DNA of 32,000 nucleotides, taken from NCBI GenBank assembly GCA_049303315.1, contig JBAQMZ010000029.1, forward strand, positions 105,703-137,702, written 5' to 3'. The DNA comes from Candidatus Methanoperedens sp. (GTDB lineage Archaea > Halobacteriota > Methanosarcinia > Methanosarcinales > Methanoperedenaceae). Made by a program: the position numbers and the translations under genes. Shown here piece after piece: positions 4,832-12,776 of this stretch (position 1 is the stretch's first letter; each line of letters begins with the position of its first letter). The notes beneath the pieces were generated by a model. The model was not told the origin of the DNA and ran no database searches. It saw nothing but the letters and a program-made list of their open reading frames with translations.

Positions 4832-5761
4832 TTATTCTAAAATACCTTTAAAGTACTTTATCGTTTCTTTTATCCCCTGCTCAAGTGAAACTTCCGGTTC
4901 CCACTCCAACAGTTCTCGCGCCTTCCCAATATCAGGTCTTCTCTGCTTTGGGTCATCAACAGGCAGCTCCTTAAAAGTAATTTTTGAATCGCTGCCTGTT
5001 ATCCTGATAATGAGTTTTGCAAATTCCAGTATCGAATACTCCTCTGGATTCCCGATATTCACAGGCTGAGTATAATCCGACATCATCAACCGGTAAATCC
5101 CTTCAACTTCATCACTCACGTAGCAGAAACTTCTGGTCTGAGAACCGTCGCCGTACACAGTCAGGTCTTCTCCGCGCAAAGCCTGCCCGATGAAATTCGG
5201 GACAACCCGCCCGTCATTCAGGCGCATCCTTGGACCATAGGTGTTAAATATCCTCACAATCCGCGTATTCACGCCATGATACCTGTGATATGCCATAGTT
5301 ATAGCCTCAGCAAACCGCTTTGCCTCATCATATACACCCCTGGGACCAATCGGGTTCACGTTTCCCCAATACTCCTCGGTCTGGGGATTCACAAGCGGGT
5401 CGCCGTAAACCTCGGATGTCGAAGACAGCAAAAAGCGTGCACCCTTCTCCTTGGCGAGACCGAGCATATTATGCGTACCAAGTGCCCCGACCTTCAATGT
5501 CTGGATTGGAAGTTCAAGGTAATCAATCGGGCTTGCAGGACTTGCAAGATGGAACAGGAAGTCGATATCGTCATCAATGTAAAGTGGCTTTGTCACATCA
5601 TGTTTTATGTAGCTGAATTTGTTATTGTCTATATGGGCAATATTTCTTGCATCTCCTGTTATGAGATTGTCCACACAAATTACCTCATATCCCTTCTCGA
5701 GCAGTAAATCGCAAAGATGCGAGCCAATAAATCCTGCACCGCCTGTTGCCATTGTTTTCAT
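4832..5761 (-). CDS. uxs: UDP-glucuronate decarboxylase (UDP-xylose synthase)
   Basis: [25 protein letters not shown] and the long block [48 protein letters not shown] are all characteristic of UXS enzymes. Confidence 0.85.
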
Positions 5762-5767
5762 ATTACC

Positions 5768-6772
5768 TCAGAATTCAATAGATGATGAATCCCCTATATT
5801 AAGCGAGTTATGTTTTCCAAGCACGCTGGCATCATCCCCAACAATGGAATCATGTAGATTTACTTTAGATATATGCGTTCGTGAACCGATTACACTGTTC
5901 GAAATAATGCTGTTATCGATATATGAATCACTCGCAATGGAGGCATGGGGGCCAATCACAGAGTTCAATATCGTAACATTATCGCCGACAGCAACAGGCT
6001 GGATGATTACTGAATCTTTTATCCGGTGTATATGGTCAATATCCTCTTTTTCATCAAGGAGTACCCTGTTTGTTTCAAGCAGTGATTCGGAATGACCACA
6101 GTCGTACCAGCTTGAAACCGGGAAGATTTTTAATTTGAGATTCCTGTTTACCATCTCCTGCAATGCATCGGTAAGCTGGAATTCACCCCGGGTACGAATA
6201 TCATTATGAATCATATCCTCAATTATCGACAGGAGAACCGATGTTTCCTTTATGAAATACACACCTGCTATCCCGAGGTTTGATGCGGGTTTCTGGGGTT
6301 TTTCCTCCAGCCTTTTAATATATTTTCCTTCGTGTTCTACAATACCGTATTTTGTCGGGTCATCAACTTCACGGACACCTATTGAAGCTGAACACTCTCC
6401 ATTATTTGAATATTGCCTGTAAAAATCAGAATAACCTGCCTTGAAAATCATATCGCCGAGTGCAATCATTATTTCCGAATCACCGATTTCATCCCTTGCG
6501 GTGTAAACAGAATGAGCAAGACCGAGTTGTTCATCCTGAGAGACATATTTTATGTTGAAAACGCGGGAATAATTCTCATTGACATAGGAAATAATCTGTT
6601 CTTTCTTGTAACCCACAACCAGTATCACTTCCTCTGGTTCCAGCTCCTTCATCCTGTCAAGGATATGCCCGATTATAGGTTTTCCTGCAATATATACCAT
6701 AGGCTTTGGTTTGGTGAACGTATGCGGAAAAAGACGCTTACCAGCACCTGCTGCCGGTATGACTACTTTCAT
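5768..6772 (-). CDS. Sugar-1-phosphate nucleotidylyltransferase with a C-terminal left-handed beta-helix domain
   Basis: N-terminal VIPAAGAGKRLFP..KPKPMV signature and a hexapeptide-like C-terminus. The ATG at 6772 is preferred over the GTG at 6778 used by the track. Sits between ugd and uxs. Confidence 0.8.
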   Translation of the reverse strand: MKVVIPAAGAGKRLFPHTFTKPKPMVYIAGKPIIGHILDRMKELEPEEVILVVGYKKEQIISYVNENYSRVFNIKYVSQDEQLGLAHSVYTARDEIGDSEIMIALGDMIFKAGYSDFYRQYSNNGECSASIGVREVDDPTKYGIVEHEGKYIKRLEEKPQKPASNLGIAGVYFIKETSVLLSIIEDMIHNDIRTRGEFQLTDALQEMVNRNLKLKIFPVSSWYDCGHSESLLETNRVLLDEKEDIDHIHRIKDSVIIQPVAVGDNVTILNSVIGPHASIASDSYIDNSIISNSVIGSRTHISKVNLHDSIVGDDASVLGKHNSLNIGDSSSIEF

Positions 6773-6774
6773 GT

Positions 6775-6930
6775 TCACACTCTCCTGTACTCATCATCAA
6801 ACCTGACGATGTCTTCCTCGTCCACGCTGTCTCCAAGCTGTACTTCAATAATCTCAAGTAGAAGTTTCCCCGGATTGGAAACTCTGTGCTTTGAACCGAC
6901 ACGTATTATTGACTTTATGTTTCCATCTCC
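6775..6930 (-). pseudogene. Start-less C-terminal remnant of a cupin-type mannose-6-phosphate isomerase / ManC C-domain
   Basis: A 51-codon open frame without a start codon: GDGNIKSIIRVGSKHRVSNPGKLLLEIIEVQLGDSVDEEDIVRFDDEYRRV*. It matches the HR.eNPG...EVQ.G.....EDDIVR..D.Y.R tail of type II PMI/GMP enzymes. Bounded upstream by TGA (6931-6933). Confidence 0.5.
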
Positions 6931-6990
6931 TCAACCTGCATTAATTTCTTACAAATATATGTGAGCTGCATATTTAAATTATACCTTTAC

Positions 6991-8274
6991 CTACCAGCAC
7001 AGACCAATGTATTCAATATCATCACGCGGAACGAGCATATGCCTGCCATCTATTACCACCCGGTTTTCCATAACCGCAAATTCCTTACCAAGGGTTTTGA
7101 ACTCGTCCCATTCTGTCATTATAAGGCAGGCGTCAGCGCCACGTAATGCAGCAGCCGCCGAGTCATGGTATTCGATGTTCTTGAAAATCCGCTTCATGTT
7201 ATCATTTGCCATGGGGTCGTATGCGCAAACTCGCACACCGTTGTCAAGTAGTTCTTTTATGACAGGAATAGACCTTGACTCCCTTATATCATCCGTATCA
7301 TTCTTGAAAGCAAGTCCCAAAATAGCTATCTTCTTTCCATTCAGGTTCCCGAGCTTATTTTTAAGCAATGTCACCATCATGGAAGGCTGTTTTTCATTCA
7401 CATCAATTACGGATTTAAGAAGTACCGGTTCATAACCAATTTCTTTAGCTTTACCGATTAAGGCTTTTACATCCTTCGGGAAACATGAACCTCCAAACCC
7501 AGCTCCAGCGTTTAAGAAGTTCGGCCCAATCCTGAAATCCTTTCCAACGGCAGACATTACCTCATAGGTATCGATGCCGAGTTTCTTACAAATGTTCCCG
7601 ACCTCGTTGGAAAAAGAAATCTTTGTGGCAAGAAACGAATTATTTACGTATTTTATCATCTCGGCTGTACGCGGGTTTGTCCGTGTAACCTCACAATCCA
7701 GACCGCTGTAAAGTGAGGCTACAATGTCGCCTGATTTTTTATCAAGTGAACCCACGACAATTTTGTCAGGGTTCATGAAATCGTAAACCGCTTTTCCTTC
7801 ACGAAGAAACTCCGGGTTCATGGCAATCCCGAAATCCCCGGCTCGCTTTCCCGAATGTTCTTCAATAATCGGCAGTACCACCTTTTCCGTGGTTTCAGGT
7901 ACGACCGTGCTTTTTACAACCACAACATGGTAGTTTTTTTTCGTTTTCAGGGCATCACCAAGACTTGCACTTGCAGCCCTGACGATACTGAGGTCGATAT
8001 TGCCGTCAGAATCTGACGGCGTTCCCACGCAAATAAACGATACGTCAGAGTTATTTACTGCAAAATCATAGTCTGATGTGGCGCTCAGCCCCTTTCCTGC
8101 GTGCTTATTAAGTAGTTTGGAAAGCCCCTCTTCATATATCGGTGGGATTCCGGCATTTATCTGGTCTATTTTTGTGCTATCGATATCAACGCAAATAACA
8201 TTGTGCCCGAGTTCAGCAAAACATGAAGCACTGACTGTGCCTACATACCCGGTTCCTATTACAGAGATTCTCAT
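6991..8274 (-). CDS. ugd: UDP-glucose 6-dehydrogenase
   Basis: N-terminal VIGTGYVGTVSASCFAELGH and the catalytic-Cys motif GFGGSCFPKDVKAL. Length is 427 aa. Confidence 0.9.
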   Translation of the reverse strand: MRISVIGTGYVGTVSASCFAELGHNVICVDIDSTKIDQINAGIPPIYEEGLSKLLNKHAGKGLSATSDYDFAVNNSDVSFICVGTPSDSDGNIDLSIVRAASASLGDALKTKKNYHVVVVKSTVVPETTEKVVLPIIEEHSGKRAGDFGIAMNPEFLREGKAVYDFMNPDKIVVGSLDKKSGDIVASLYSGLDCEVTRTNPRTAEMIKYVNNSFLATKISFSNEVGNICKKLGIDTYEVMSAVGKDFRIGPNFLNAGAGFGGSCFPKDVKALIGKAKEIGYEPVLLKSVIDVNEKQPSMMVTLLKNKLGNLNGKKIAILGLAFKNDTDDIRESRSIPVIKELLDNGVRVCAYDPMANDNMKRIFKNIEYHDSAAAALRGADACLIMTEWDEFKTLGKEFAVMENRVVIDGRHMLVPRDDIEYIGLCW

Positions 8275-8350
8275 AAATACGTCCTTTTTCCTTCTTTTAA
8301 ACTATACGGATATATTAGCTGTTAGATAATTGTACTCGACAGTCAAATAA

Positions 8351-8443
8351 TCATTCCGTTAAACTAATAAAACCTGACGAAATAACTCTATCGTCCATCA
8401 GTGCTCCAACAAATCCCGCGCCGCCAGTCACCATGCATTTCAT
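8351..8443 (-). pseudogene. 30-codon stub of an NAD-dependent epimerase gene (MKCMVTGGAGFVGALMDDRVISSGFISLTE*)
   Basis: A Rossmann N-terminus only, lying upstream of ugd on the same strand. Below the ORF-track length cutoff. Confidence 0.45.
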
Positions 8444-8570
8444 GCCTGTAAAATTGAACTGACATTACTTAAATCCTCTCCCAGAGCTCAAAGCCCTGCG
8501 CCAGCCTCTGTACGACCACAGCACTGCCAGGGTGGTTTTGCTTGCATGTGTCGGGAATAGTAGAAATGAT

Positions 8571-8595
8571 GTTGCTTCGGTTAGCATATCGGCGC
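8571..8595 (+). repeat. Repeat-module copy C, left half only (gttgcttcggttagcatatcggcgc), cut off by the insertion
   Basis: Matches the 5' part of copies E, A and B. The expected continuation (c-ggnnntttaatattta...) is found only at 12649 onward. Confidence 0.75.
8580..8595 (+). repeat. Left copy of the 16-bp direct repeat (putative target-site duplication) gttagcatatcggcgc
   Basis: Identical 16-mer at 12633-12648. The boundary is ambiguous by 1 nt, so the duplication is 15-16 bp. Confidence 0.75.
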
Positions 8596-8596
8596 A

Positions 8597-8642
8597 CGCC
8601 CCCCGCTCTGCATTTTCATGGTTTTTATTTATCTCTTTGTCC
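8597..8642 (+). repeat. Left terminal inverted repeat
   Basis: The tip cgccccccgc (8597-8606) is the exact reverse complement of 12624-12633. The block 8621-8642 (gtttttatttatctctttgtcc) matches the reverse complement of 12588-12609 at 17/22, at the same 23-nt offset from the tip. Confidence 0.7.
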
Positions 8643-8674
8643 TCTCTCGGGTTCACAATCATTAATATATCCTT

Positions 8675-8696
8675 GTTTTTATTTATACTTTTGTAC
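8675..8696 (+). repeat. Second subterminal copy of the 22-bp arm motif (gtttttatttatacttttgtac)
   Basis: Matches 8621-8642 at 18/22 and the reverse complement of 12588-12609 at 19/22. Confidence 0.55.
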
Positions 8697-8720
8697 TTTC
8701 GTTTTCTTCTTATATCTTTT

Positions 8721-8790
8721 TCACACCTCCCCCCACCACAGCACGTGACCACACCCTCACACACACAGCACACGCACACAGAGAGAAAAA
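8721..8790 (+). other. Strand-asymmetric C/A-rich, nearly T-free low-complexity tract in the left arm
   Basis: tcacacctccccccaccacagcacgtgaccacaccctcacacacacagcacacgcacacagagagaaaaa, with a central cacgtg palindrome. ORFs called across it translate to low-complexity Cys/Val/Gly or His/Thr/Pro strings. Confidence 0.5.
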
Positions 8791-8944
8791 AGTAAAACCG
8801 CTATCAAGCGGCGCTTTTATAAACACTATTCTTATAAAAAATGTAAATAAAATTCTCTCGATAACGATTATTTTAAATTTTATTAATATTATAAATAATT
8901 TACGCAAAAATCGCTATTGGTAAACACTTTTTATCTTAGGAAAA

Positions 8945-8981
8945 GCTTATATATAATAACAACTATATTACATAATCGTTA
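8945..8981 (+). promoter_or_regulatory. Candidate promoter/operator of the plus-strand cargo operon
   Basis: A TATA-like cttatatataat at about 8947-8958 is followed by taatcgtta (8973-8981). That 9-mer is the inverted partner of taacgatta at 8862-8870 and is related to the ttaacgatt tandem in the right arm. Confidence 0.3.
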
Positions 8982-9080
8982 CGTGTTGTCTGGTTGCAGG
9001 GAATCAAGTCTTTTTTCCCTGTAACTATTCCTGATTATAGGGAATATAGGCAGGTAACAGGAAAAGACCAGGAAGATAAC

Positions 9081-9620
9081 ATGTTGAATGAAATAAACAA
9101 TCCACTTAGTGGCGACACTATAAATCAAATAGTAGAAGATATTATAGGGGTTAATAAGGACAGCACAAACCGAATAGGACAACAACATTTAAAAGATATT
9201 ATACTTTGTGTTCATTCAAGAGCGCCTATAAAAAAAAGCACTCTTGTATCTATTTTGAGGGTAAAAATTCTAATCGGGGAAAGGTATGTAAACGAATATT
9301 TAGATGGTTTAGAAGCCTTAGAAATCATAAAACTTGATAAAAATATGATTCTTTGGAATTTTAACGATACTATAAAACCCGCAGAAATCCCCACAAAACA
9401 ACCATTAAATAATCATTTTAAACCCGATAAGAATGAGTTTAAAACGATAATAAAAGATGCTTCAAAGCAAATATATGACCAACGGGAAGAATTAAAAATT
9501 AAGGCAGATTCAGCCGAAGGAATCCCCTTTGAAGAAATGCTAAAACTCACGCCTTTTTCTGAATTGGGGATGAATCAGGAACAGTTTGAAACGTGGGTAT
9601 TAACACAAATTGAGGGTTAA
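9081..9620 (+). CDS. Winged-helix DNA-binding protein (putative element regulator)
   Basis: The segment KKSTLVSILRVKILIGERYVNEYLDGLEALEIIKLDKNMILWN reads as helix-turn-helix plus wing. ATG 9081 is preferred; the track starts at TTG 8994 in the same frame, so the start is uncertain. Confidence 0.55.
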   Translation: MLNEINNPLSGDTINQIVEDIIGVNKDSTNRIGQQHLKDIILCVHSRAPIKKSTLVSILRVKILIGERYVNEYLDGLEALEIIKLDKNMILWNFNDTIKPAEIPTKQPLNNHFKPDKNEFKTIIKDASKQIYDQREELKIKADSAEGIPFEEMLKLTPFSELGMNQEQFETWVLTQIEG

Positions 9621-9621
9621 T

Positions 9622-9846
9622 ATGCTATCTTTGAAAATTCGTTATCGGAAGAATGCAAAACCGACAGTTATTAATCTTGATGTTTCAGGTAATACAACTA
9701 TCGAAGAAATTGCAGAACAGGCAGCAAACAAGCTCGCAAAAGGGTTTAAAAGATATGCAACAGGTATTTCAGAAAGAAGCCTTGAAAAATACCGCTTTGC
9801 ACAATATATGATGTTGAAATTAAAGTTATCGGAGATGATTAAATAA
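9622..9846 (+). CDS. Hypothetical small protein (74 aa)
   Basis: ATG at 9622 preceded by gaggg (9612-9616). Its stop overlaps the next start (TAATG). Confidence 0.45.
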   Translation: MLSLKIRYRKNAKPTVINLDVSGNTTIEEIAEQAANKLAKGFKRYATGISERSLEKYRFAQYMMLKLKLSEMIK

Positions 9847-10121
9847 TGGCAAGAGATGTTGAAATTGAATTGGATTACGACAGTCAAACGGTAACTATTG
9901 TAAATCCTGATGGGGTTTATAGTTACGATATGACCGATGATATACTGAAATTAGCGAATGACTTGCTTGAAGGCGGTGCGGGATACAGTGTTTATTCGCA
10001 GGAAGACACATGGACGGAACAAATCAGCGATAAAATAGAGAAGCGCAGACAACTAAAAGAACAGTTGGCAGAGCTTGATGATGAAATCAGAGAAATAAAA
10101 GAAAAACATAAAGGAGGATGA
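9846..10121 (+). CDS. Hypothetical small acidic protein with a charged helical C-terminal tail (91 aa)
   Basis: Coupled start and stop with its neighbours. The C-terminus KIEKRRQLKEQLAELDDEIREIKEKHK looks like a coiled coil. Confidence 0.5.
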   Translation: MARDVEIELDYDSQTVTIVNPDGVYSYDMTDDILKLANDLLEGGAGYSVYSQEDTWTEQISDKIEKRRQLKEQLAELDDEIREIKEKHKGG

Positions 10122-10125
10122 AATA

Positions 10126-10818
10126 ATGGCAAATGAAGAACTTAAAGACCTTGTAGAAACCGCAAACAGACAAGATATAAGATTCCTGTTTAATCGCTTT
10201 GACTGTAACAATTTAGAAAAAGCTTTCCGTGTGGCACACGAATTAAATCAGAAAGTGGATAAACCGATATGCAAAGGCTTTATTGAAAAGGATGGAAAGC
10301 TATTCAAACAGATGTCAAAAACTGTATGGCGTGTGGGTAGGAATTATGACCGTAACGTAGTTCTCGAAGTGGATAACCACGATTTAAATAACCTGCGAGA
10401 GCTATATAATTTCTATAAGTCACTTCTTGGACAGGATTTTAACGTATTCAAAACCTTACATGGTTTTCACGTAATCCAGAAAGTAGCGTACAAAACAAAT
10501 GATGAATGGCTCTATGCTAACAGTTTGTTATTGAATCCGTCTTTGAAGTTAGAGGATTTAGCAGATTACGTTGAAAAGATAAAGGCTTTCGATAACAGTA
10601 AACGCAACGATGATACCGTAAAAGATACTCATAAACTGTTGGGCACAAAAGAAGATTACATTAGAGACTTTAAGAAATCTGGATTATTTCAAGGTACTGG
10701 CGAGTTCGACCTTCTATATACTATCCGTGGAATATGTTTTAATAAGTACACATTGAGAATATCAAAGAAAACACCAACTGACAAATACGAACGGGTAGAC
10801 ATGGAGAAATTGACATGA
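10126..10818 (+). CDS. Hypothetical protein (230 aa) with weak archaeo-eukaryotic primase / prim-pol-like motifs
   Basis: aggagg-like RBS (ggaggatg) upstream. Candidate motifs are VVLEVDNHD (acidic metal-binding strand), KTLHGFHVI (compare sGxGxHhh) and NDEWLYANSLLLNPS (compare hD...hhhPPS). The assignment rests on motifs only. Confidence 0.5.
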   Translation: MANEELKDLVETANRQDIRFLFNRFDCNNLEKAFRVAHELNQKVDKPICKGFIEKDGKLFKQMSKTVWRVGRNYDRNVVLEVDNHDLNNLRELYNFYKSLLGQDFNVFKTLHGFHVIQKVAYKTNDEWLYANSLLLNPSLKLEDLADYVEKIKAFDNSKRNDDTVKDTHKLLGTKEDYIRDFKKSGLFQGTGEFDLLYTIRGICFNKYTLRISKKTPTDKYERVDMEKLT

Positions 10819-11111
10819 AAATCGATAAAATACCAATAGAGGAGGCGTATAACCTCATTTTACATCCGATACAGCACATAATATCCATAAATCCACGGAT
10901 AATAACCCGTATGGAGTTGATTCTATTACATGCAGTTAATCCGGTGCTGGCAGATAAGGTATTCCAAGAAGGTAACCTATCGGATGAAGTGCGAGAATCA
11001 CTTACACCAACACCAGAACAATACAAAGCGAGATTAGTTGAGCAATATAGAATATGTGAAACAAAATCACATAAAAAAGGTTGGAAGAAATTTAAAAAAG
11101 GATTAAAATGA
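10815..11111 (+). CDS. Hypothetical protein (98 aa) with a basic C-terminal tail
   Basis: ATGA overlap with the upstream stop. Tail sequence KSHKKGWKKFKKGLK. Confidence 0.45.
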   Translation: MKIDKIPIEEAYNLILHPIQHIISINPRIITRMELILLHAVNPVLADKVFQEGNLSDEVRESLTPTPEQYKARLVEQYRICETKSHKKGWKKFKKGLK

Positions 11112-11284
11112 AGATTAGAGACGTTATAAAAATCCAAAGAAAAGAAGCAGTAAAAACTAAAACAAGTATCCGCTTTGCGCTAAAAAGCGATACTGATAAA
11201 GGTTTTTATTGTAGATTATTTGATAATCAAGTTAAGTTTTGCAGTATAACTTTTTGTAATTATTTAACTTTGTGTGAAAGATGA
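11108..11284 (+). CDS. Possible 58-aa Cys-containing ORF (below the track cutoff)
   Basis: ATGA overlap with the upstream stop. Translation MKIRDVIKIQRKEAVKTKTSIRFALKSDTDKGFYCRLFDNQVKFCSITFCNYLTLCER* contains four Cys residues. Confidence 0.3.
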   Translation: MKIRDVIKIQRKEAVKTKTSIRFALKSDTDKGFYCRLFDNQVKFCSITFCNYLTLCER

Positions 11285-11292
11285 AATTTAAA

Positions 11293-12336
11293 CTATAACA
11301 TTTTTTCAATTTTCCGTATCAATGGAAGGCTTTTAAGCTCTAATGGGTTAAGTACAAACATAAACTCATTCAAAGCAATATCAAAAGCATTATCTTTGAA
11401 GGTCATGCTCATTTTATCTTTTGTAAAAGTGAAATCAGTTGGTTTTATTCTTAATCCTAAAATCATCTCTATAACCTGACTGTCAATCCATACCCTATAA
11501 GGCTCTATGAAATCATAAACAAGCATATTCCAGTAAGGTTTTTGTGCTTCATTCTGATGCATGAAGCCTATGGATAGCTCAAAACCACGTTTTAATAATA
11601 GTTCACTCATTCTTTGAGCTAACAAAGAATAACCTAAATTCAACATGGAGTTTATCGGGTCAACTGCATTTTTATTACCTGATACTTTCCCGTGCCTGCC
11701 TTTCCAATTCCATTCTTTACCAAACACCCAGTTTTTGAAATATAGATTTGCTGAAATGGCTTCTATTTGCATAATCTCTTTTATATCCAGTGCCTTGTTA
11801 AGTTTAGGGATATAATCTTTCATGCCTTGCGATTCCAGTTTTAACTTTATCAAATATTTAGTTATCTCCAATGCTTTGCCGTTAATCCTTGATTCCACTT
11901 GTTTTATAATCAATGATGGTCTTTTAAAATTGAACGGTAAAAAGCTTGCATCAACTTTACCTTTGCTATCAATCCAGTATATTGCTATCGAATTAGCTTT
12001 AGCAAAATCAATAAAAGCAGTAGAAATATAACCTTTTCCATTAGGCGTTATGATAATTCTTTCAGTATTATGAAGGTCTATCGGATAATCCTTTTTAACC
12101 TCTATTTTTTTGTTGTGCTCTCTAAGGAATTTTAGATATAATTTACCATGATGATTTATTCTCTTTTCAGGTAATCCGGCTTTCTTATCCCGTTCTAATT
12201 GCTGGCTCATTAATTCGTCAATTTCACTATCGGTATAAGGTCTTTCTGTTGTTTCAATATGTGTAAATACGGGTTTAAGATTCTGCTTTCTTAGAGCAAA
12301 TAGACTATTTATCAATAATGACGATTCATTATTCAT
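11293..12336 (-). CDS. cas1: Cas1-family integrase homolog, solo (casposase-like)
   Basis: The Cas1 architecture is readable by eye. N-terminal beta domain: ERIIITPNGKGYISTAFIDFAKANSIAIYWIDSKGKVDASFLP. Glutamate motif: QIEAISANLYFKNW. Also NAVDPINSMLNLGYSLLAQ, histidine motif LSIGFMHQ and acidic motif LVYDFIEPYRVWID. No cas2, cas4 or CRISPR array in the window. Confidence 0.8.
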   Translation of the reverse strand: MNNESSLLINSLFALRKQNLKPVFTHIETTERPYTDSEIDELMSQQLERDKKAGLPEKRINHHGKLYLKFLREHNKKIEVKKDYPIDLHNTERIIITPNGKGYISTAFIDFAKANSIAIYWIDSKGKVDASFLPFNFKRPSLIIKQVESRINGKALEITKYLIKLKLESQGMKDYIPKLNKALDIKEIMQIEAISANLYFKNWVFGKEWNWKGRHGKVSGNKNAVDPINSMLNLGYSLLAQRMSELLLKRGFELSIGFMHQNEAQKPYWNMLVYDFIEPYRVWIDSQVIEMILGLRIKPTDFTFTKDKMSMTFKDNAFDIALNEFMFVLNPLELKSLPLIRKIEKML

Positions 12337-12409
12337 ACGAGTTCACCAATTTATATAAAGCTTCAATCCAATTTATAACTTGCCTATCCCTTAATTACGA
12401 GTTCACCAA
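12336..12409 (-). promoter_or_regulatory. cas1 promoter region: palindromic TATA box flanked by two 14-bp direct repeats
   Basis: tttatataaa at 12350-12359 has its upstream edge 23 nt from the A of the ATG, which implies a leaderless or near-leaderless mRNA. tacgagttcaccaa occurs at 12336-12349 (overlapping the start codon) and again at 12396-12409. Confidence 0.45.
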
Positions 12410-12519
12410 ACTGTTTTTTTGGGGTAGGTACTTTACTTTTCTTAGACTGCACCGCTTGTTAGTGATTATTTTGTGTGAATACGGGATACTCCGATTTTAG
12501 GGAAAGAGTATGAAGGTAT

Positions 12520-12595
12520 AATTGTACAAATAGGACAATAATTGTTAACGATTCTTAACGATTGTCAACCAGAACGAGAATCTAATTGCACAAAT
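12520..12595 (+). repeat. Right-arm subterminal repeats
   Basis: aattgtacaaat (12520-12531) and aattgcacaaat (12584-12595) match 11/12. They bracket a tandem ttaacgatt (12545-12553 and 12555-12563, 10-bp period). Confidence 0.6.
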
Positions 12596-12633
12596 GTATA
12601 AATAATAACATTAATATAAATAGGCGGGGGGCG
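12588..12633 (-). repeat. Right terminal inverted repeat
   Basis: The reverse complement reads cgccccccgc...gttattatttatacatttgtgc, pairing with 8597-8642. Confidence 0.7.
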
Positions 12634-12648
12634 TTAGCATATCGGCGC
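12633..12648 (+). repeat. Right copy of the 16-bp direct repeat (putative target-site duplication)
   Basis: gttagcatatcggcgc, identical to 8580-8595. Confidence 0.75.
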
Positions 12649-12724: not shown

Positions 12725-12776
12725 GTTGCTTCGGGAGCATACTGGCGCCGCCAATTTAATATTCACGATGTAATAT
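12725..12776 (+). repeat. Repeat-module copy E
   Basis: gttgcttcgggagcatactggcgccgccaatttaatattcacgatgtaatat. Confidence 0.7.

Follow-up and report, generated by a model that had tools for sequence, protein, structure and literature searches.

A PolB-less Cas1 transposon in Candidatus Methanoperedens with a candidate primase-polymerase gene shared with spindle-virus-like genomes

We analyzed a 32-kb stretch of DNA from Candidatus Methanoperedens sp. (contig JBAQMZ010000029.1, positions 105,703 to 137,702; hereafter the window, in whose coordinates all positions are given) and found that positions 8596-12634 constitute a chromosomal insertion of ~4.04 kb, which has the anatomy of a Cas1 transposon, resembles casposons and lacks a family-B DNA polymerase (PolB). 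The element carries six open reading frames (ORFs) that converge on a stand-alone cas1 gene. The fourth of these, ORF4, encodes a member of an unannotated protein family that we consider a candidate for a divergent archaeo-eukaryotic primase (AEP). The explanation that best accounts for the element as a whole is a PolB-less Cas1 transposon in which a divergent, AEP-like ORF4 serves as replication initiator, and we assign it a probability of roughly 0.55. The CRISPR adaptation machinery is presumed to descend from casposons, which were defined as self-synthesizing, PolB-encoding transposons.

Anatomy of the element and its Cas1

The ORFs and cas1 fill a trough in GC content (0.31-0.36, with flanks at 0.40-0.45). 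Because this trough coincides with a direct repeat and inverted termini, and because an uninterrupted paralogue of the target is present, we read 8596-12634 as a Cas1-transposon insertion. At its left edge, a target-site duplication (TSD) at 8580-8595, GTTAGCATATCGGCGC, abuts a terminal inverted repeat at 8596-8642 on the forward strand, which begins with ACGCCCCCCGC, continues into a second conserved block and coincides with the start of the low-GC island. This repeat pairs with the right terminal inverted repeat on the reverse strand (12588-12634), the end of which reads ...GCGGGGGGCGT, and the right TSD at 12633-12648 is identical to the left copy at 16 of 16 positions. The inverted repeats are perfect at their tips (11/11) and agree at 31 of 47 positions overall when the left is compared with the reverse complement of the right. 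Because a terminal GT/AC is common to repeat and duplication, such that the first two bases of the TSD (GT) can also be read as the right repeat, the length of the TSD is 14-16 bp. By our estimate, an exact 16-nt repeat within 5 kb is expected ~0.003 times by chance, a figure in which the abutting inverted repeat is not yet counted.

An internal 'empty site' is provided by the uninterrupted target-site paralogue at 12725-12775 on the forward strand, which aligns contiguously at 42 of 52 positions across the junction that is reconstructed by joining the left flank to the right through a single TSD copy. This 51-nt paralogue lies 100 nt downstream of the insertion, so the target belongs to a local tandem repeat of ~100 nt. 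GTTGCTTCGGTTAGCATATCGGCGCCGGGAGTTTAATATT is the predicted target sequence for Cas1 insertion. The insertion point is intergenic, and no RNA gene was found at it when the target region was scanned for Rfam families and tRNAs.

The cas1 gene (11293-12336, reverse strand) encodes a stand-alone protein of 347 residues that is the predicted integrase, or casposase, of the element. Its product matches Pfam Cas_Cas1 (E=4.6e-34) and TIGR00287 (E=2.9e-35), and the catalytic residues E192, H260, D275 and E278 are present and align with those of the Methanosarcina mazei casposase 6opm_A. This casposase is also the best match in the PDB (E=5.9e-13), by a slight margin over a chain that was deposited under the plain name Cas1 (51.8 vs 47.4 bits). 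The protein lacks the C-terminal helix-turn-helix (HTH) of family-2 casposases, and family-1 casposases are likewise described as lacking it (PMC8464041). Raw scores of 129 against family 5, which is represented by partial published sequences, and 108 against family 2 indicate a slight preference for the former.

The six ORFs that the original prediction, made from the letters alone, had placed on the forward strand between 9081 and 11284 are all present and, as described there, are separated by at most 4 nt or overlap (TAATG, ATGA, ATGA) and converge on cas1. It had also stated that none of the six is long enough for PolB or shows HNH, methyltransferase or recombinase motifs, which agrees with our searches: Pfam, PHROGs, NCBIfam and PADLOC matched neither PolB nor any of the other three among the proteins of the element or of the window. 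We found neither a CRISPR array nor a tRNA in the window, and cas1 was the only cas gene recognized there. The element has two of the hallmarks of a casposon, a Cas1 without a CRISPR array and terminal repeats with a TSD, and lacks another, a family-B polymerase.

Casposon families 1-4 (Krupovic et al. 2014, 2016), which were found by the co-occurrence of cas1 and polB, all encode PolB (PMC4046053, PMC4779613). Like these families, the window element has a stand-alone Cas1 with the full catalytic set and a predicted integrase role, terminal inverted repeats, a TSD of comparable length (14-15 bp in the M. mazei and A. boonei elements) and an intergenic insertion in a Methanosarcinales-type archaeon, and its closest solved structure is the M. 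mazei casposase. In contrast to them, it contains no PolB, HNH or family-2 HTH genes, its Cas1 is without the family-2 C-terminal HTH, its cargo includes a putative primase module shared with virus-like genomes, and its length is ~4 kb, whereas casposons are described as large transposons (PMC5137440). PolB-less 'family 5' casposases have been proposed from hot-spring metagenomes (Salgado et al. 2022, PMC9755687). The window Cas1 resembles them as an archaeal stand-alone Cas1 with intact active-site residues and no C-terminal HTH, and they too are mostly found without a DNA polymerase amid poorly conserved hypothetical genes. However, family 5 comes from thermophilic Thermoproteota-type contigs, and no AEP-like or virus-shared module is described there.

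The ORF4 family and its candidate AEP motifs

ORF4 (10126-10818, forward strand) encodes a protein of 230 residues. An exhaustive profile search recovered 73 cluster representatives of its family at E<=1e-3 and 60 at E<=1e-10, all of 200-280 residues. When the family profile was used in a second, word-indexed search, none of the members listed had a Pfam domain or an informative source name. Pfam searches of 64 family members returned only occasional N-terminal zinc-finger matches, and a HMMER comparison of the family profile with PDB sequences returned no match.

The original prediction had singled out three peptide strings in this protein (VVLEVDNHD, KTLHGFHVI and NDEWLYANSLLLNPS), all of which are present, and had likened them to AEP motifs I, II and III. 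We counted conservation across the 64 family members. Ahead of the first motif stand W68 (50/64), R69 (59/64), V70 (56/64) and G71 (56/64). Positions 78-80 are hydrophobic and lie on a predicted strand, position 81 is Asp in 51 members and Glu in 13 (E81 in the window protein), D83 is invariant (64/64), and N89 follows in 59 of 64. The second motif comprises T/S110 (64/64), G113 (63/64), Tyr or Phe at position 114, and His (33 members), Trp (24) or Gln (7) at position 115. Farther downstream, D195 is conserved in 62 of the 64, and R211, S/T213, K215 and D/E219 in all of them. The motifs of the family can thus be written hhh[D/E]hD, [T/S]xxG[Y/F][H/W/Q] and R211-h-[ST]-K-K215, where h is hydrophobic.

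A hydrophobic strand ending in DxD/DxE, the hallmark of AEP motif I, is found in ORF4 and was aligned to motif I of four AEP profiles. Compared with the AEP motif II consensus sGxGxH, the first Gly is not conserved in the ORF4 family; the motif falls on a predicted beta-hairpin. Motifs I and II of the original prediction are conserved in the family, and profile alignment sets them in register with those of AEPs, whereas its motif III is not conserved: the string NDEWLYANSLLLNPS contains no conserved acidic residue, and just L136 and P138 are conserved there. D195 and R211/K215 are better candidates for motif III and the downstream positions. As candidate active-site residues we propose E81, D83, T110, G113, H115, D195, R211 and K215. 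Kazlauskas et al. 2018 (PMC5862659) show that accepted AEPs differ by family in the motif II residue, where Gln, Tyr, Arg or Lys can replace His, and that an Arg-hydrophobic 'motif IV' farther downstream is indispensable. The residues H/W/Q115 and R211-I would fit this picture of a variable motif II His and a motif IV.

Profile-profile alignments were run locally with hhalign, using AEP domain sequences from the supplement of PMC5862659. The ORF4 family aligned with RepE/RepS at P=2.5e-4 (probability 43%), and its residues 60-125 did so at P=2.7e-5 (probability 74%). Alignment with PrimHYQ gave P=5.5e-3 (8.8e-4 for the core alone), with All3500 P=0.037, and with a merged 48-sequence AEP profile P=6.7e-4 (7.1e-5 for the core alone). 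All of these alignments set motif I on AEP motif I and motif II on AEP motif II. For comparison, negative controls with Cas1 and the ORF3 family reached a best P of 0.054 in 12 comparisons, the crystallographically proven pRN1 prim-pol family reached at best P=0.0021 against the same AEP profiles, and PolpTN2 matched RepE/RepS, both accepted AEPs, at P=0.0042. The relationship to PF09250 that the original prediction had in mind, and with it one to pRN1, did not emerge: none of the 64 members has such a Pfam match, and hhalign against pRN1 ORF904 alone and against a small pRN1-family alignment gave P≈0.2 with the motifs unaligned. A homologue search seeded with pRN1 yielded 5 close relatives only.

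An AF2 model of ORF4 built from 32 sequences (pLDDT 86.7, pTM 0.78) shows a strand with motif I, a helix and a beta-hairpin with motif II, in this order. A structure search for an AEP fold had also been proposed, and Foldseek placed PriS (9f28, 5of3, 1v33, 1zt2) and LigD-Pol (2iry, 2irx, 2r9l, 4mky, 2fao) repeatedly near the top of the match list for two independent models, never at a significant level. Taken together, we lean slightly toward ORF4 being an AEP-type protein.

With members of the PrimPol-PV1 supergroup (RepE/RepS, PrimHYQ, All3500, PolpTN2 and RepB') and with pRN1 ORF904, the ORF4 family appears to share an hhhDhD strand, a helix and a hairpin with small-G-x-G-aromatic-H/Q. The motif spacing is the same (32 residues from D83 to H115 in ORF4), the motif II His is variable in both, and the invariant Arg-hydrophobic of ORF4 is a candidate counterpart of the one on a C-terminal strand of AEPs. 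Both also occur in small mobile elements, and a D5-type helicase is encoded alongside ORF4 homologues on two virus-like contigs (L007 and L008, described below). In contrast to these prim-pols, ORF4 has no Pfam match, its profile match is confined to ~42 N-terminal columns, its equivalents of motifs III and IV are uncertain, and Trp is frequent at its His position. Furthermore, the family consists of stand-alone proteins without a PriCT or helicase domain, and ORF4 has a dedicated partner gene encoding ~75-90 residues.

Three other enzyme types were considered for ORF4 and rejected. The order DxD...T...GDxxD fits a HAD phosphatase, but the Lys/Arg comes after motif IV and not before it, and the predicted hairpin is antiparallel, not Rossmann-like. 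In a Pol-beta-type nucleotidyl transferase the G[SG] motif should come before DxD. An HUH Rep would have H-U-H where ORF4 has H-x-x-H, and the His is not conserved.

Related Cas1 elements and virus-like genomes

Close homologues of ORF4 number eight in 5.8 billion clusters, all on metagenome contigs of 1-4 kb. The original prediction had proposed checking whether homologues of the ORFs occur with Cas1 elsewhere, and they do: three independent metagenome contigs (L002, L003 and L004) carry an ORF4 homologue and a convergent Cas1 that is 69-87% identical to the window Cas1. ORF3 (9846-10121, forward strand) encodes a small partner of ORF4 of 91 residues, with a conserved N-terminal domain (...IEI...G.Y.Y...TVYSQ) followed by a coiled-coil tail, and its homologue lies directly upstream of the ORF4 homologue in L003 and L004. 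ORF2 (9622-9846, forward strand) encodes a conserved small protein of 74 residues that is 72% identical to its homologue in L004, where cas1 is frameshifted. The ratio dN/dS against the related elements is 0.13 for ORF2, 0.29-0.34 for ORF3, 0.13-0.14 for ORF4 and 0.18-0.21 for cas1, which indicates purifying selection and identifies all four as real genes. The conserved core of the operon is ORF2-ORF3-ORF4, and the gene content of the interval between ORF4 and cas1 differs in every element, the window, L002 and L003 included. Between the window and L003, synonymous divergence (dS) is 1.35 for ORF4 and 0.46 for cas1, and this threefold difference suggests recombination of the cas1 and ORF2-4 modules between elements.

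A region of ~105 nt upstream of cas1 (12337-12441, reverse strand) is also kept in L002 (3259-3357), L003 (2969-3065) and L004 (2474-2577), and the sequence beyond it is not conserved. In the window it contains two boxes of the (C/A)GAGTTCACCAA type at 12338-12350 and 12398-12410, 60 nt apart, together with a CCTATCCC/GGGATAGG inverted repeat. In all four elements two ATTCACCAA boxes are found at a distance of 59-60 nt, and the first of them overlaps the start codon of cas1. This region is probably an operator or promoter that controls cas1.

More distant Cas1 relatives (L013-L016 and L018; 51-54% identical) have other small genes alongside. On the 26-kb contig L013 (JGI Ga0154761_168, 4848-8717), a Cas1 that is 54% identical to that of the window sits behind a DUF6908 gene and an 87-residue gene and adjoins a convergent gene for AIPR (abortive infection); no terminal repeats were found there. 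L013 thus represents a different cargo set with the same Cas1 clade. PolB was found neither in L002-L004 nor in four further Cas1-related loci. Two scans of GTDB representative genomes returned no relatives of the Cas1, scans of IMG/VR found relatives of neither Cas1 nor ORF4, and a tblastn search of INPHARED phages and PLSDB plasmids with ORF4 gave no match.

Other homologues of ORF4 are encoded on virus-like contigs. In L001 and L006-L008 the homologue immediately precedes a gene for a His1-type major capsid protein (PF25665 His1_capsid), which is followed by a DUF5658 gene or domain and then by a gene encoding 860-920 residues. L009 and L010 have the same gene order, and their neighboring gene has no capsid match on record. 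Because an ORF3 homologue sits immediately upstream of the viral ORF4 homologue (L001, L006, L007 and L009), ORF3-ORF4 is a two-gene module common to spindle-virus-like genomes and the 4-kb Cas1 elements. The window element is unlike His1-type spindle-shaped viruses in that it has no capsid or other structural gene, and structural genes are likewise absent from the 4-kb elements in general. The shared module points to gene flow between casposons and archaeal viruses in methane-oxidizing archaea.

The contig L006 (Logan SRR18214578, 1-15789) is 15,789 bp long, has inverted repeats of 30-34 nt at its very ends and looks like a complete linear virus genome. It encodes a His1-type capsid, a Rad52-like protein and an ORF4-family protein, and no PolB. 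His1 itself replicates with a protein-primed PolB, in contrast to the ORF4-bearing virus-like contigs, which lack that gene. The sole recognizable replication protein of L007 (1908-3188) and L008 (2584-3864) is a D5_N/SF3 helicase of 426 residues with D5_N/DUF5906/Pox_D5 domains. D5-type helicases are usually preceded by an N-terminal AEP domain, for which this protein has no room because its D5_N match begins at residue 86. L007 and L008 also encode a VapB-type antitoxin and a hexapeptide-repeat transferase.

The remaining ORFs of the window operon are less conserved. ORF1 occupies 8994-9620 on the forward strand (208 residues, TTG start) or 9081-9620 (179 residues, ATG start). The winged-helix signature that the original prediction ascribed to it comes down to a sub-threshold Pfam HTH_65 match (E=0.19), which weakly hints at a DNA-binding role; a weak tblastn match to ORF1 occurs at the start of L004. 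ORF5 (10815-11111, forward strand, 98 residues) is variable cargo, and ORF6 (11108-11284, forward strand, 58 residues) is variable cargo or possibly non-coding. Neither has detectable homologues in the related loci; both are unique to the window element and putative as coding genes. None of the six ORFs gave a match above threshold in Pfam, PHROGs, NCBIfam or PADLOC. At the junctions, ORF1/ORF2 reads TAA-T-ATG, ORF2/ORF3 overlap in TAATG, ORF4/ORF5 and ORF5/ORF6 overlap in ATGA, and ORF3 and ORF4 are separated by 4 nt. Shine-Dalgarno-like sequences precede ORF2 (GAGGG) and ORF4 (GGAGGA, 8 nt upstream of its ATG). The start contexts of ORF3 (9834-9852, GATGATTAAATAATGGCAA) and ORF4 (10114-10132, GAGGATGAAATAATGGCAA) are near-identical 19-mers, and both products begin with Met-Ala. 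Only 8 nt lie between the stop codon of ORF6 and the convergent stop codon of cas1. The insertion lies within a glycan-biosynthesis gene cluster, and outside the element the window has genes for enzymes of nucleotide-sugar and glycan biosynthesis, for a radical-SAM protein, for a flippase and for functions of this kind.

Proposed explanation, alternatives and significance

In the explanation that we favor, Cas1 would integrate the element at its GC-rich inverted termini, which would generate the duplication of 14-16 bp. ORF4, probably with ORF3, would act as the replication-initiation enzyme, a very divergent AEP-like (prim-pol-type) and metal-dependent nucleotidyl transferase. Metal would be bound by E81 and D83, with D195 as the most likely third carboxylate, and nucleotide by T110, G113, H115, R211 and K215. 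The enzyme may prime, and perhaps extend, DNA on the excised or gapped element while host polymerases carry out the bulk of synthesis, such that ORF4 would stand in for the PolB of classical casposons. Exchangeable cargo, here ORF5 and ORF6, would occupy the slot between ORF4 and cas1.

Several findings weigh against this explanation. Occasional zinc-finger matches aside, the 64 members of the ORF4 family are without a Pfam-domain, PHROG, NCBIfam or PDB sequence match, and hhalign gave no signal against PolpTN2, RepB', InversePrim or pRN1/PF09250. The match to the AEP profiles is limited to some 42 columns, and the C-terminal half (residues 120-230) has no significant AEP alignment. The Trp at the motif II His position in 24 of 64 members is not found among the substitutions described in PMC5862659, D195 is predicted at the N-terminus of a helix and not on a strand, and an alternative alignment sets AEP motif IV on the less conserved K183-x-S-G-L. 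A Foldseek search of the PDB gave no match below E=0.17, and the best AEP match had E=0.19 and a TM of ~0.2. The best BFVD matches of the model are uncharacterized filamentous-virus proteins of 180-230 residues (A0A3Q8Q6Y2, A0A3Q8Q3U3 and A0A140F3J6; Foldseek probability 0.95-1.0, E 2e-3 to 3e-2) from the crenarchaeal Sulfolobales Beppu filamentous viruses and Pyrobaculum filamentous virus 1, and the modeled fold of ORF4 may be more widely spread among archaeal viruses. Finally, no terminal repeats, target duplications or circular overlaps were found in the related short contigs, which probably end inside or near the elements. The short alignment, the non-significant fold searches and the frequent Trp would all be expected if ORF4 were a DNA-metabolism enzyme or initiator unrelated to AEPs, such as a novel metal-dependent nuclease, a nucleotidyl transferase or an origin-binding Rep, that had converged on a beta-strand-DxD, helix and beta-hairpin-Gly arrangement, and the invariant R211-I-S-K-K215 and D219, which have no clear AEP counterpart, agree with this as well. 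The element would then still be a PolB-less Cas1 transposon with a replication or maintenance module shared with viruses. We consider such convergence rather unlikely: the in-register match recurs against three separate AEP families and the merged profile, with P-values that improve on the negative controls by >200-fold and also surpass those of a proven prim-pol family, the HAD, Pol-beta nucleotidyl transferase and HUH patterns clash with the motif order or the predicted antiparallel hairpin, and AEPs are the sole fold class that recurs near the top of the PDB match list.

The viral ORF4 homologue borders the structural block and is the immediate neighbor of the capsid gene. This raises a different view, in which ORF3-ORF4 is a virus-derived accessory function (morphogenesis, genome packaging or anti-defense) and the Cas1 element is a satellite or passive carrier that is copied with the chromosome. 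Non-replicative PolB-less casposons have been proposed before (PMC9755687), which would be in line with it. However, the 4-kb Cas1 elements carry ORF3-ORF4 without a capsid or other structural gene, ORF4 has invariant Asp/Asp/Asp/Arg/Lys residues typical of an enzyme and a dN/dS of 0.13-0.14, and no sizeable non-structural gene other than ORF4 occurs in all the virus-like contigs, in which a replicase is otherwise not recognizable; an accessory role thus seems improbable. Least probable, in our judgment, is that the element is a decayed, non-autonomous deletion derivative of a PolB-encoding casposon with six ORFs as leftover or accidental cargo. All four originally defined casposon families do encode PolB (PMC4046053, PMC4779613), the relative L004 has a frameshifted cas1, and most related contigs are so short that a PolB-bearing relative could be missed. 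Against this, the same PolB-less core, with 60-87% protein identity and under purifying selection, recurs in four independent elements, the window cas1 is intact with all its catalytic residues, and the TSD and repeat termini are perfect. On the 26-kb L013, no PolB was found among the ORFs scanned around cas1, and the PolB-bearing full-length relative that the original prediction named as a possible refutation did not appear in any related locus.

A transposon with an AEP-like initiator would have a parallel in the CAPPs (Zabrady et al. 2021, PMC8211822). In both cases a Cas1 integrase is genomically associated with an AEP-type enzyme, the AEP status of ORF4 being that of a candidate, and the suggested logic is that of a primase/polymerase that serves DNA-integration machinery. 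CAPPs are recognized AEP-superfamily prim-pols that the paper ties to CRISPR-Cas adaptation, whereas the window has no CRISPR array or other recognized cas gene and ORF4 is not detectably related to PF09250. In the casposon literature that we searched, no AEP prim-pol in a casposon was found described.

According to the original prediction, the module combination would be new for a Cas1 transposon if the prim-pol motifs were real, and for the ORF3-ORF4 module this holds. A lack of PolB is not new by itself, since family 5 was proposed in 2022 (PMC9755687); what is new is a 4-kb Cas1 transposon with precisely defined boundaries in Methanoperedens, the ORF3-ORF4 module shared with His1-capsid-type virus-like genomes, and a candidate AEP-like family. 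The element indicates that Cas1-mediated mobility is not tied to PolB, and the PolB-less casposons of the 2022 proposal gain from it an anatomy, namely repeat termini, a TSD and an uninterrupted target copy. Should ORF4 prove to be a primase-polymerase, its roughly 70 sequence clusters would form a new AEP family, the missing replicase of one His1-like virus group would have been identified, and there would be a parallel to the partnership of Cas1 and prim-pol in some CRISPR systems. We tentatively extend this to a broader scenario, which is possible rather than probable, in which a PolB-less mini-casposon lineage in Methanoperedens exchanged a replication module, made up of a divergent AEP family and a small obligate partner, with His1-capsid-type spindle-shaped viruses, such that the Cas1 elements and linear, inverted-repeat-bearing, PolB-less viruses would both use the module as replicase or initiator. 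It is even conceivable that the 4-kb elements are virus satellites with Cas1 as their means of integration. If the module-exchange reading is true, it would link Cas1 transposons directly with archaeal viruses in evolution and would mean that such linear genomes replicate in a new way.

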